Below, one piece after another: positions 13,335-62,542 of a DNA stretch of 64,000 nucleotides. Each line of letters begins with the position of its first letter. The stretch's first letter is position 1. Under the pieces are notes generated by a model, which worked only from the letters and a program-made list of their open reading frames with translations, was not told the DNA's origin and did not search any database. The position numbers and the translations under genes are program-made. Origin of the DNA: Escherichia phage vB_EcoM_G17; the sequence record MK327931.1; one strand, 5' to 3'.

Positions 13335-13387
13335 AATCTGTCCAAATAAAAAGCCCAGATATTCATCCGAGCTTTAATTATATTTTA

Positions 13388-13714
13388 TTAACGACCAAAG
13401 GTTAGCATTTTAGTTCGTGGATCTTCATCTGAAACTAAACTAACTGCGGCTGGATAATCAACCAAGTTTAATTCAATACCATCAACTTCAATAGTTCTTG
13501 ACCATCGACCATGATCAATTAAAATCCATTGACCTTCTTTAATATCAGTAATGTCTTCGCCTACAGAATAAACTTTTGCCCAGCGAGAACGAATACCTCT
13601 AATTTTACCGTCATCGTTTGTTAAAACGATACCACCTGCTGTTTTGCGTTCACCATGTTCCAGTTCAGTTACCAGTACTTTACCTTTACATGCAGTCATT
13701 ACTTTATTAGTCAT
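13388..13714 (-). CDS. GroES-like co-chaperonin (Cpn10 family)
   Basis: KVLVTELEHGERKTAGGIVL ... VYSVGED ... EGQWILIDHG matches the Cpn10 pattern. Confidence 0.65.
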   Translation of the reverse strand: MTNKVMTACKGKVLVTELEHGERKTAGGIVLTNDDGKIRGIRSRWAKVYSVGEDITDIKEGQWILIDHGRWSRTIEVDGIELNLVDYPAAVSLVSDEDPRTKMLTFGR

Positions 13715-13722
13715 TTAATATA

Positions 13723-14067
13723 TTACTCCTGATCTTTGGTTCTAGCTCGACGTGGTGCTTTCTTCTCTTCAGAAACCTCAGCTTCTTGTTCTTCGGGCTT
13801 AACTTCAAAACTCTCATCATCCCATACTTCATCCGTACCATGTTCAGTACTATGAAGTTGATGTTCAGGGATATAATCAGGAATTTGCATTTCTCGTTCT
13901 TTTTCTTGAATCAACTCTTCACGAGTTTTAATAATTGTTCCACCTGAACCGATTTTATCACCACGTGCGTTTAAATTAGCATTACCTAATGCTACCTGAT
14001 GTTGATTTTGGTACTTGAGCATATCCATGTCAATTGTTGTACCACGATAAGTTGTATGTTTAGACAT
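13723..14067 (-). CDS. hypothetical acidic protein
   Basis: 114-aa ORF. Confidence 0.5.
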   Translation of the reverse strand: MSKHTTYRGTTIDMDMLKYQNQHQVALGNANLNARGDKIGSGGTIIKTREELIQEKEREMQIPDYIPEHQLHSTEHGTDEVWDDESFEVKPEEQEAEVSEEKKAPRRARTKDQE

Positions 14068-14112: not shown

Positions 14113-14145
14113 ATTATATCACATGTTTTTCTACCATTTCAAAAA
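14113..14145 (-). promoter_or_regulatory. early promoter with extended -10 (TGTGATATAAT)
   Basis: minus-strand TGnTATAAT at 14113-14123, upstream of the start at 14067. Confidence 0.45.
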
Positions 14146-17361: not shown

Positions 17362-17371
17362 TAAAGGACAA

Positions 17372-17392
17372 GGAAGACCCATAAGGTCTTCC
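17372..17392 (-). terminator. hairpin downstream of gp52 (ggaagacc-cataa-ggtcttcc)
   Basis: perfect 8-bp stem. Confidence 0.4.
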
Positions 17393-17402
17393 ATTAAATA
17401 TA

Positions 17403-23898: not shown

Positions 23899-24961
<1,063 letters not shown>

Positions 24962-58950: not shown

Positions 58951-59015
58951 TGATAAATAATATCATAGAAATTCATTAAATATCTCAGTAAATTTAAATG
59001 CTAGTGATATTTTTT

Positions 59016-60373: not shown

Positions 60374-60384
60374 TATTTTACAAA

Positions 60385-60420
60385 AGAAAAGGAGAGCAAA
60401 TGCTCTCCTTTTTTTATTTT
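60385..60420. terminator. bidirectional rho-independent terminator
   Basis: ggagagca-aa-tgctctcc with A-run upstream and T-run downstream. Confidence 0.7.
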
Positions 60421-61157
60421 TATCTATATGAACGAAATCCTTCAGGTAAACCAGGTAGCTTGTCTAATCCTTCGTTCGCACTCACTAGCTTTGTGTCGTA
60501 ATCATCACTGAAATCATCCGTAGCAAGTTTACGCCCCAAGTCTCTAACAAAGTTATCTATGATTTCTTCTTCATCATTACCTGGATGACCTTCGGCTTTC
60601 AACTTTTTCCAGAAATATTCGTTATAGTCAAAAACAAACTCAACTTCATTTGTTTCAGGATCAAGAACCACATCCAAATCAATCCAAGGCTCTTTTCGAA
60701 GTGTATATATCTCCTTTGAATATTCACTTTGAGTGATTTCTTCATAACGATATGCAAATTCTATAGCCTTAAGCCTTTTTTCATCACCGTCTGGCATTAA
60801 CTCAATGATTTCCATATCATATTCTTTTTCAGTAATAGAACCAGTACTTAGTTTTGCATCAAGAACTTTAACATTATACTGTTCACGAGTAATTTTAGAA
60901 TATTTTAGTTCAACATCAAGTACAGTAATTAGATATTCCAAATCTCCAATTACGCTATATTTCTTTTTAATATCCAATTGGGCCAGTTCAACTTCATATG
61001 GAGTTAGATATGTCAATTCAGCAACTTTCATATCAGCTTCATAATCATCATTGTAGTAGTATGCTTTAGCTATCTCTTTTGCCTTTCCAGAAAGTCCCCA
61101 GTGAGCAGGGACCATCCAAAATGGAATAAATTTCTTTTTAGCCATTTTTCTTACCAA
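60420..61157 (-). CDS. hypothetical protein (in the late unit with the GroES-like gene)
   Basis: 245-aa ORF. Confidence 0.5.
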   Translation of the reverse strand: MVRKMAKKKFIPFWMVPAHWGLSGKAKEIAKAYYYNDDYEADMKVAELTYLTPYEVELAQLDIKKKYSVIGDLEYLITVLDVELKYSKITREQYNVKVLDAKLSTGSITEKEYDMEIIELMPDGDEKRLKAIEFAYRYEEITQSEYSKEIYTLRKEPWIDLDVVLDPETNEVEFVFDYNEYFWKKLKAEGHPGNDEEEIIDNFVRDLGRKLATDDFSDDYDTKLVSANEGLDKLPGLPEGFRSYR

Positions 61158-61437
61158 AAATCTCTTCGATTTTCATTACATAATATGTATCTTCACCACC
61201 ACCAAGATCTTCAGTCAGAGGTGTGTTCAAAGATGAACGACCAAACACAACCATATCACCTTCTTTAATATTATGTTCTGCAAGTTGTCCGTTCGGAAGA
61301 ATTTTACCTGGACCAACGGAAATTACCATCCCAATACATGGTGGTTCAACATTACCTAGAATAATACCACCAGTACTTTTATTCTGTGCTTCAATTTGTC
61401 GAACAAGAACGTAATCATTAATCATTTTAATTTTCAT
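61138..61437 (-). CDS. GroES-like co-chaperonin (gp31-like, Cpn10 family)
   Basis: MKIKMINDYVLVRQIEAQNKSTGGIIL ... GMVISVGPG ... EGDMVVFG; start taken at the internal ATG. Confidence 0.6.
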   Translation of the reverse strand: MKIKMINDYVLVRQIEAQNKSTGGIILGNVEPPCIGMVISVGPGKILPNGQLAEHNIKEGDMVVFGRSSLNTPLTEDLGGGEDTYYVMKIEEIFGKKNG

Positions 61438-61438
61438 A

Positions 61439-61645
61439 TTAGTAACCTCCAGTATTTGCAAACCATTTTCCACGGAAATAAAGATTAGCACCCTTATCAC
61501 CTGGAGTGAACACTTCCAACTTCATAGTTTTTTCACCATTACATTTAGGACAATCATGAGGTTCATCACGATTTGCAATTTTAACAATTTTTTCCATGCT
61601 ATGTTTGCATTCTTCTTTTTCACAACGATATGTATATAATGGCAT
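61439..61645 (-). CDS. FmdB-family zinc-ribbon protein
   Basis: MPLYTYRCEKEECKH ... CPKCNG pattern. Confidence 0.5.
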   Translation of the reverse strand: MPLYTYRCEKEECKHSMEKIVKIANRDEPHDCPKCNGEKTMKLEVFTPGDKGANLYFRGKWFANTGGY

Positions 61646-61680: not shown

Positions 61681-61699
61681 GGGGAACATAGTGTTCCCC
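61681..61699 (-). terminator. hairpin after gp45 / in the late leader (ggggaac-atagt-gttcccc)
   Basis: perfect 7-bp stem. Confidence 0.35.
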
Positions 61700-61701
61700 G
61701 T

Positions 61702-61709
61702 TATTTATA
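61702..61709 (-). promoter_or_regulatory. T4-type late promoter box TATAAATA
   Basis: exact TATAAATA on the minus strand, overlapping the gp45 stop, upstream of the zinc-ribbon/GroES-like genes. Confidence 0.5.
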
Positions 61710-62441
61710 TTAGCAGCCTGTTACGTAAAATTTGTATACTGCAATTCCAGTATCTAGTGTTACATTTAGCATACCAGTTTTAGTAATACCAAGTGATACT
61801 GATTCGGCATTAGATACGCGAGATAATGCTTGAAGTACGCGATCAATATTATAACCAAAACCAAGACCTAATTCACCTTCAGTTTTAGAAAAAGCTAGAG
61901 AACCAACGTGGTTACTTTTGTTTTTCTCACCAACGTGAAAGTATAGGGTGTCGCCTTCAGTATACGGAGTTACAAGAGAACTAAAAGATTTAAATACACC
62001 AGAAAAACTCTTTAGTTCCTGAACTTTTGCTGCACTAGGAATAACCTGTACGTCATATGGTTGTTCATGAAAACGTGGTTGAACTGGAATAAGTTTTTCA
62101 GCTTGTACCATAAATGTAGTGCTTGCATCTTCAGATTTAAATGCCAGACTTTTAACTGAACCATCTTTAACATTTGATGTGATTGTGGTTCCTTCGGTAC
62201 TGTATGTTTTTAGAGACATTAGACCCTGAAGAAGACCTAGATTACCTAAGCCAAAACGACCCTGAACTTCAGGAACATCTTCTTTAGTATATGCTCGCAT
62301 TACAAGAGTTCGGTCATCTGTGTACGCTTCTAGATATACACGTTGTCCTTCACCACGGTCTTCACTGCTTACTGCAATACAAGAGAAGTCAATACCACTG
62401 GTTGTGTTTACGAGGTCACGTAGTACGTTGCGTAGATCCAT
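61710..62441 (-). CDS. 45: sliding clamp (gp45-like)
   Basis: size and position next to the polymerase; NTTSGIDF and LGLLQGLMSL blocks resemble T4 gp45 (ATINSGIML, LNGFLGILSL). Confidence 0.5.
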   Translation of the reverse strand: MDLRNVLRDLVNTTSGIDFSCIAVSSEDRGEGQRVYLEAYTDDRTLVMRAYTKEDVPEVQGRFGLGNLGLLQGLMSLKTYSTEGTTITSNVKDGSVKSLAFKSEDASTTFMVQAEKLIPVQPRFHEQPYDVQVIPSAAKVQELKSFSGVFKSFSSLVTPYTEGDTLYFHVGEKNKSNHVGSLAFSKTEGELGLGFGYNIDRVLQALSRVSNAESVSLGITKTGMLNVTLDTGIAVYKFYVTGC

Positions 62442-62542
62442 TATATAATTCTCCGTTTTATTTGTTAATCAAAAAATGTTTTTATGTAAGATTACTACAA
62501 GCACCATTATATCTCAAAAATGATGCTTGTCTCAATTTTTTA

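Follow-up and report, generated by a model that had tools for sequence, protein, structure and literature searches.

Two divergent Cpn10 co-chaperonin genes, one gp31-like and one GroES-like, in a Rak2-like jumbo phage

Introduction

The co-chaperonin gp31 of phage T4 takes the place of GroES on GroEL to fold the capsid protein gp23, its long loops and missing roof enlarging the folding cage (PMC3012670, PMC6318259); the roof found in GroES is lacking, and the mobile loop has 22 residues against 16 in GroES (PMC6318259). Co-chaperonin geometry is thus the textbook reason why T4 needs gp31 for capsid-protein folding. Both T4 gp31 and RB49 CocO can also substitute for GroES in all essential host folding (PMC3012670). 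Closer to the phage considered here, two GroES-like ORFs were reported in Pectobacterium phage CBB and compared with those of T4 and RB49 (Buttimer et al. 2017; PMC5259590), and a "GroES chaperonin" is listed among the clade-conserved orthologues in the XacN1 paper (PMC5852040). Chaperonins and promoters are not mentioned in the paper on Escherichia phage Sharanji, nor chaperonins in those on fEgEco12 and UE-S1, and the main text of the PA5oct omics paper says nothing of EST35_0290, the PA5oct homologue of the first gene described below.

Here, we describe two Cpn10 genes in a 64,000-nucleotide stretch of phage DNA (the window), copy 1 at 13388-13714(-) and copy 2 at 61138-61437(-). GenBank annotation already covers both, and the literature already records such genes for the phage group; because both are annotated as chaperonins in the deposited record, the gene pair is not new. 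To this we add the contrast of one gp31-like lid with one GroES-like lid, evidence on promoter classes, a third paralogue in relatives, and a set of fusion proteins.

Results

By megablast, both gene regions are 100% identical to Escherichia phage Sharanji (OR545507.1; 350 kb, Asteriusvirus, a Rak2-like jumbo phage; Sharanji position = window position + 111630), 98.6-100% identical to PBECO4, phAPEC6, SP27 and most of the other group members listed, and 94-99% identical to 121Q. The two genes lie 47 kb apart in Sharanji and have promoters of different classes. Copy 1 is annotated there as "chaperonin 10 Kd subunit" (Sharanji_gp283) and copy 2 as "10 kDa chaperonin" (Sharanji_gp344, groS); the corresponding labels are "chaperonin" (gene 58) and "GroES-like protein" (gene 615) in 121Q, and "head morphogenesis" and "co-chaperonin GroES" in the RefSeq record of PBECO4. 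When the window was searched by tblastn for a third Cpn10 gene, using GroES, gp31, CBB_131, copy 1 and copy 2 as queries, only these two loci were returned. The window also holds, by record annotation, adjoining genes for a ClpS-like Clp protease adaptor and IF-3 at 23899-24444(-) and 24458-24961(-), further phage proteostasis or translation genes alongside both co-chaperonins.

The first-pass annotation had read the two ORFs as divergent Cpn10 genes, and this holds: both pass the Pfam Cpn10 model (PF00166; gathering score 21.1 bits), and they share 33% identity across 63 residues. Copy 1 (108 aa, 12.1 kDa) passes marginally, with a partial match of 24.8 bits over residues 8-66. Its residues 1-79 of 108 match phrog_931, the T4 gp31 family classed under "head morphogenesis", at 1.5e-20 (control: 3.7e-50 for T4 gp31, the query being confirmed as identical to PDB 1G31). 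AlphaFold2 predicts a single-domain Cpn10 beta-barrel (pLDDT 89.6, pTM 0.83), for which the top 19 Foldseek matches in the PDB are all Cpn10, GroES, Hsp10 or gp31. The best PDB sequence match is chloroplast Cpn11, at an E-value of only 0.066, and 1G31 was not found when the PDB was searched with copy 1 by phmmer, the connection to gp31 appearing only through profile and predicted-structure comparisons. Family alignments were built from database homologues (n=77 for copy 1, n=25 for copy 2) and compared by hhalign, where the copy 1 family matches the gp31 family profile at 90% (E 1.6e-6), with no gap at the roof, and the copy 2 family at 89% (E 2e-6); on these profiles, copy 1 is about equally distant from the two. 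Alignments of copy 1 to gp31 stop at about residue 63-79, leaving its C-terminal third unaligned, and the gp31-type C-terminal region (KQKFVTCHYK...Y) is scored as absent from copy 1 because the profile match ends near residue 63. Across the copy 1 family W45, R70 and W71 are invariant, all three being absent from GroES and gp31, and the loop is near-invariant at D34, G36, G40 and R44. A disordered mobile loop is not usually so well conserved, and a different partner could be the reason.

Copy 2 (99 aa, 10.7 kDa) is clearly of the GroES type by sequence comparison. It matches Pfam Cpn10 over its full length at 61.8 bits and phrog_3188 (GroES) at 8e-28, close to the 4e-31 of the E. coli GroES control, and scores only 0.033 on phrog_931; in the PDB it finds the Thermus thermophilus protein (5.7e-12) and E. 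coli GroES (3e-9), and hhalign aligns it with E. coli GroES at 98.5% (E 2.4e-15). The AlphaFold2 model has a Cpn10 fold at moderate confidence (pLDDT 75.2, pTM 0.64), because the underlying alignment is shallow, and its Foldseek matches in the PDB are Cpn10, GroES, Hsp10 or gp31 at all of ranks 1-36. AlphaFold2 and Foldseek therefore give a Cpn10 barrel for both proteins, neither falling outside the fold. The 99-aa reading frame, starting at the ATG at 61437, is supported by the family alignment and by a GGAGG placed 8 nt before that ATG. In the RefSeq record of PBECO4 the orthologous ORF is longer (336 nt; NC_027364.1 286924-287259, L003:3425-3760) and overlaps the neighbouring zinc-ribbon gene.

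Loop and roof anatomy was read from the profile-profile alignments (hhalign) and from a 13-sequence MAFFT alignment with GroES, gp31 and relatives. This comparison with gp31 and GroES, proposed in the first-pass annotation, separates the two copies. Copy 1 lacks the roof hairpin, with a 9-residue gap in its place, and its mobile loop is 5 residues longer than that of GroES (1 before and 4 after the hydrophobic tripeptide) and carries GGIVL; copy 2 keeps the roof hairpin (GPGKILPNGQLAEHN) and has a loop shortened by 2 residues that carries GGIIL, followed in the copy 2 family by invariant E31, P33 and C34. Secondary structure in the AlphaFold2 models concurs, copy 2 having a bridge pair at 46 and 52 (the roof) and copy 1 being strandless between 52 and 62. 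The motif G-I-(I/V)-(I/L), predicted to dock on GroEL, is near-invariant in both families, with G28 in 76/77, I29 in 75/77, I/V30 in 77/77 and I/L31 in 76/77 members of the copy 1 family, and G24, I25 and L27 each in 25/25 and I26 in 24/25 members of the copy 2 family.

A search of 50,697 phage records for a phage GroEL (tblastn of E. coli GroEL, with an approximate query sequence that matches a Salmonella groL at 99.2%) yielded no indication that this phage group encodes one: 252 phage records matched, and Escherichia is outside the ten commonest genera among them, the smallest of which has 7 records. Rak2-like Escherichia phages with both Cpn10 genes account for 33 records. Both lids would therefore have to use host GroEL.

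Copy 1 was placed among early genes in the first-pass annotation, and its setting agrees with this in that it lies among replication genes and has the promoter class associated with them. The gene gp284 (114 aa, phrog_14844; 13723-14067(-)) ends 8 nt upstream of copy 1, and the two are presumably co-transcribed. They are preceded by a promoter-like TTGAAA-18-TATAAT element with a TGTG extension (TGAAATGGTAGAAAAACATGTGATATAAT; 14113-14142(-)), of the class found before replication genes, and followed by an intrinsic-terminator-like hairpin of 11 pairs with a T-run (13350-13375(-), tail TTATTTGG). The extended -10 motif TGTGMTATAAT occurs 7 times in the window, where 0.35 are expected, and always on the coding strand (14113, 21474, 31495, 43581, 48435, 53611 and 58918, all -). 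All but one of these sites are intergenic, upstream of gp284 (the copy 1 operon), gp306, gp322, gp330, gp335 and the RNase H gene; the seventh is inside gp290. A near-match is present in the gyrB promoter (TGATACAAT). The motif corresponds to the "divergent RpoD-like" promoter class of CBB and GAP32.

In CBB, the promoter Porf_329 (TGAAATGGTAAAAAAAATTATGGTATAAT), which stands before CBB_329-CBB_330, is near-identical to that of the copy 1 operon (PMC5259590 Table S6), its class is found mainly upstream of DNA-synthesis genes, and a terminator, Torf330, is listed after the copy 1 orthologue (PMC5259590). The order PolIII-alpha fragment, small ORF, Cpn10, small ORF, clamp loader is common to Sharanji and CBB; a 2-kb metagenomic contig (L011) has the first part only, with the PolIII-alpha fragment, the small ORF and Cpn10 modules.

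Copy 2 is the middle gene of a tight operon, as read from the sequence, in the order zinc ribbon, GroES, virion protein. The first gene, gp345 (68 aa; 61439-61645(-)), encodes an FmdB-type zinc-ribbon protein (Zn_ribbon_8, 41.7 bits; phrog_13665, 5e-40) and has its stop codon 1 nt ahead of the copy 2 ATG, so placed that the GGAGG ribosome-binding site of copy 2 is inside the 3' end of gp345. The last gene, gp343 (241 aa; 60420-61145(-)), encodes a virion structural protein (phrog_13349, 1.8e-120), with an 8-nt overlap between its start and the copy 2 stop. A bidirectional terminator at 60384-60415 closes both this operon and convergent virion-protein genes. Upstream, directly 3' of the gp346 stop codon, stands an exact TATAAATA, a T4-late-promoter-like box (61702-61709(-)), which bears out the earlier reading that copy 2 sits with a zinc-ribbon gene behind such a box. 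Between box and operon is a hairpin, GGGGAACA-CUA-UGUUCCCC (61681-61699(-)), of about -13 kcal/mol and without a clean U-run, which may be a weak gp346 terminator and/or a 5' stem-loop of the late mRNA. Hairpins of the form GGGGAACA-nnn-TGTTCCCC recur after gp346, upstream of gyrA (about 17370-17400(-)) and in the CBB terminator list, with one at the equivalent position in RaK2 (L012:2247-2265), and this appears to be a terminator or stem-loop element shared by the phage group.

The upstream neighbour of the operon, gp346 (243 aa, 26.56 kDa; 61710-62441(-)), has a sigma70-like promoter at 62506-62535 and separates the copy 2 operon from the DNA polymerase region. It has no Pfam match and no PDB sequence match, and might be a T4 gp45-like sliding clamp; its mass exactly matches that of virion protein gp215c in the portion of the phAPEC6 virion table available to us.

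The core of the late box, ATAAATA, is about 3-fold depleted in the window (12 occurrences, 39 expected). Nine of these occurrences fall in intergenic DNA, which makes up only 4.3% of the window. These nine (17354, 23857, 25852, 40110, 44598, 44626, 58953, 59017 and 61702) are all sense-oriented; eight stand 36-63 nt upstream of a gene start, and the one at 58953(+) is about 110 nt upstream of gp341. Among the genes preceded are the virion-protein genes gp287 and gp341, whose product masses match gp158c and gp210 among the phAPEC6 virion proteins in the same portion of that table. Depletion together with intergenic sense placement fits a T4-like late promoter under counter-selection inside genes. 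ATAAATA has been proposed as the late promoter of the CBB/GAP32 group (PMC5259590), and a gp55-like sigma factor is encoded by CBB (CBB_244) and most Rak2-like phages (PMC5259590, PMC6102473). On motif evidence of this kind, late transcription of the copy 2 unit in Sharanji is a reasonable expectation.

The assignment of copy 2 to a late unit thus stands in part, on the exact box and the intergenic enrichment of ATAAATA, but RaK2 and CBB do not share this box. No ATAAATA precedes the orthologous operon of RaK2, which has GTAATAAC and then the hairpin at that position; in CBB there is none in 4 kb around the orthologous operon, no late promoter is listed there, and the nearest upstream promoter listed is the replication-class Porf_265 (PMC5259590). 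Because the late box is missing from these two phages, a temporal split between the copies may be specific to Asteriusvirus, or not real. Transcription from the replication-class promoter of gp346 may read through the weak hairpin into the copy 2 operon.

Both paralogues were found by tblastn in Asteriusvirus, in RaK2-like and CBB/GAP32-like phages, and in Serratia BF, Yersinia fHe-Yen9, Erwinia pEa_SNUABM, Xanthomonas XaC1 and Salmonella SE_PL phages. Genes of the copy 1 type are present in 88 phage records (tblastn), covering all of the Rak2-like genera listed together with PA5oct-like phages, Atu_ph07 and SCTP-2, and an exhaustive search with the copy 1 profile returned 534 clusters at 50% identity (E <=1e-3); genes of the copy 2 type are limited to the Rak2-like core by tblastn. 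Copy 2 orthologues keep their zinc-ribbon and structural-protein neighbours in RaK2 and in CBB, the latter having CBB_267 (zinc ribbon, IPR013429) and CBB_269 (annotated structural protein).

In the CBB paper, the GroES-like pair consists of CBB_131 and CBB_268 and does not include the copy 1 orthologue. CBB_131 (KU574722.1 67407-67688; L008:5408-5689) is a third Cpn10 paralogue, of 93 aa and with its roof partly deleted, and adjoins a tyrosyl-tRNA synthetase gene. This paralogue is carried by CBB, GAP32, Serratia BF, Yersinia fHe-Yen9, Erwinia pEa_SNUABM, XbC2 and EJP2, and gave no tblastn match in Sharanji and other Asteriusvirus records or in RaK2 records, so that CBB-like phages have three Cpn10 genes and Sharanji two.

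The copy 1 family further includes tandem Cpn10 fusions, all of them unverified metagenome gene calls: P0200, P0201, P0211 and P0321 have two modules (about 200-214 aa), and P0199 has three (362 aa). In P0211 a roofed GroES-like module is joined to a copy 1-like module, and on its contig (L011:922-1840) it is preceded by a separate 99-aa Cpn10 and by a PolIII-alpha fragment, as in the copy 1 neighbourhood.

Discussion

We think it somewhat probable that the two genes encode genuine Cpn10 co-chaperonins for host GroEL, which differ in lid geometry and descend as old, separately conserved paralogues. Each would form heptamers and bind GroEL through its conserved loop motif. Copy 1 would be a gp31-like lid whose dome, lacking a roof, stays open and whose loop exceeds that of GroES by about 5 residues. 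It would be transcribed with gp284 from the replication-gene promoter class, and should on the strength of that promoter be present from mid-infection onwards. Copy 2 would be a GroES-like roofed lid with a short loop and an invariant EPPC, encoded inside a virion-protein cluster and translationally coupled to the zinc-ribbon and virion proteins behind a T4-type late box. Such a pair would most likely serve to re-tool and boost host GroEL capacity for a large phage proteome, each lid having its own clients and/or its own period of action. Neither Cpn10 matches by mass a protein in the portion of the phAPEC6 virion table available to us.

The two lids could instead be redundant, copy 1 being ancestral in a wider jumbo clade and copy 2 a GroES-type gene gained later and maintained because it raises dosage or guards against differences in GroEL between hosts, with no client meaning in the geometry. 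The far wider range of the copy 1 type (PA5oct, Atu_ph07, SCTP-2; 534 clusters), set against a copy 2 type found only in the Rak2-like core, fits such a history, as do the ability of gp31 and CocO to replace GroES in the host (PMC3012670) and the third paralogue of some relatives, which suggests that Cpn10 genes are easily gained. We nevertheless regard redundancy as unlikely, since the paralogues are retained together across the several Rak2-like genera sampled, at identities to Sharanji of 59-65% for copy 1 and down to about 55% for copy 2, and the invariant residues and conserved gene surroundings are particular to each, all of which argues for separate selection on each copy. Copy 1 could also be a protein of Cpn10 fold with a replication-linked job and no role as a GroEL lid, which would make copy 2 the only true lid. 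The gene order shared with CBB around the PolIII-alpha fragment and clamp loader, part of which recurs on L011, the replication-class promoter and the marginal Pfam score would all suit this reading, and it is retained mainly because of the invariant W45, R70 and W71, which GroES and gp31 lack, and the unusually conserved loop; we judge it improbable, more so than redundancy.

A further proposal, that the copies co-assemble into mixed heptameric lids like those of chloroplast Cpn10/Cpn20, draws on the metagenomic tandem fusions (P0211, with its roofed and copy 1-like modules; P0200, P0201, P0321; P0199) and on the separate 99-aa Cpn10 directly beside the P0211 fusion on L011. It seems very improbable for Sharanji, where the genes are 47 kb apart and under different promoter classes, the fusions being unverified metagenome calls. 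Within the favoured reading of two genuine GroEL lids, one may go further and imagine a programmed change of the GroEL cage, with roofless copy 1 acting from the replication phase, roofed EPPC-bearing copy 2 arriving with the virion proteins, and different clients for each, or else paralogues mixed in one ring to tune its geometry; this extension is speculative and on balance doubtful. If true, either a cage change or a mixed ring of this kind would mean that a virus naturally runs a chaperonin system with several lids.

A capsid-folding duty for copy 2, suggested in the first-pass annotation, is not favoured: it is weakened because copy 1 is the copy with the gp31 hallmarks (no roof, long loop, phrog_931), because T4 gene 31 itself lies among early genes, and because the major capsid protein of this phage group has only 42 kDa. 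The latter mass is that reported for phAPEC6 (PMC7247149), T4 gp23 having 56 kDa (PMC3012670, PMC6318259). A 42-kDa capsid protein fits the normal GroEL/GroES cage, so that an enlarged cage is not obviously required and the T4 rationale may not apply.

With a gp31-like and a GroES-like lid in one phage group, a third lid in some members and apparently no GroEL, these phages offer a natural experiment on how lid shape and timing relate to clients. Should the lids have distinct clients, cage size and roof closure could be compared on one GroEL within one infection; the significance would be modest unless there is a real division of labour between them.

Several known systems bear comparison with this gene pair. 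The chloroplast Cpn10/Cpn20/Cpn23 system (for example that of Chlamydomonas, 7EKQ) likewise has several co-chaperonin paralogues for one chaperonin, with tandem modules in a single chain. Searches with the Sharanji Cpn10 proteins retrieve Cpn11, Cpn20 and Cpn23 chains by sequence or fold, and the copy 1 family has tandem fusions too, whereas the Sharanji genes are unfused and far apart, and mixed rings would be hypothetical there. Pectobacterium phage CBB belongs to the same phage group, and its CBB_268 is the copy 2 orthologue, with the same zinc-ribbon and structural neighbours; CBB_330, the copy 1 orthologue, was left "hypothetical", its sole pointer to GroES being an InterPro "GroES-like" flag given in the supplement (PMC5259590). 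Bacterial GroES (E. coli, 1AON) is the counterpart to copy 2, which aligns with GroES over residues 1-67 at 39% identity and resembles it in the roof hairpin, in GGI(I/V)L and in length (99 vs 97 aa). Copy 2 differs from GroES in that an invariant E-P-P-C replaces A-A-A-K-S-T, the loop is 2 residues shorter, a 4-residue insertion (GGGE/LGGG) precedes the last strands in Asteriusvirus and the C-terminus FGKKNG is conserved, and in being phage-borne, in an operon with zinc-ribbon and virion-protein genes. Copy 1 is distant in sequence from T4 gp31, one of the pair gp31 and RB49 CocO with which it is best compared (about 15% identity by structural alignment; 25% over 59 profile columns), and its likely client differs, given a major capsid protein of 42 kDa in this phage group vs 56 kDa for T4 gp23. 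Even so, T4 gp31 and copy 1 share both departures from GroES, the lost roof and the lengthened loop, and copy 2 has neither.
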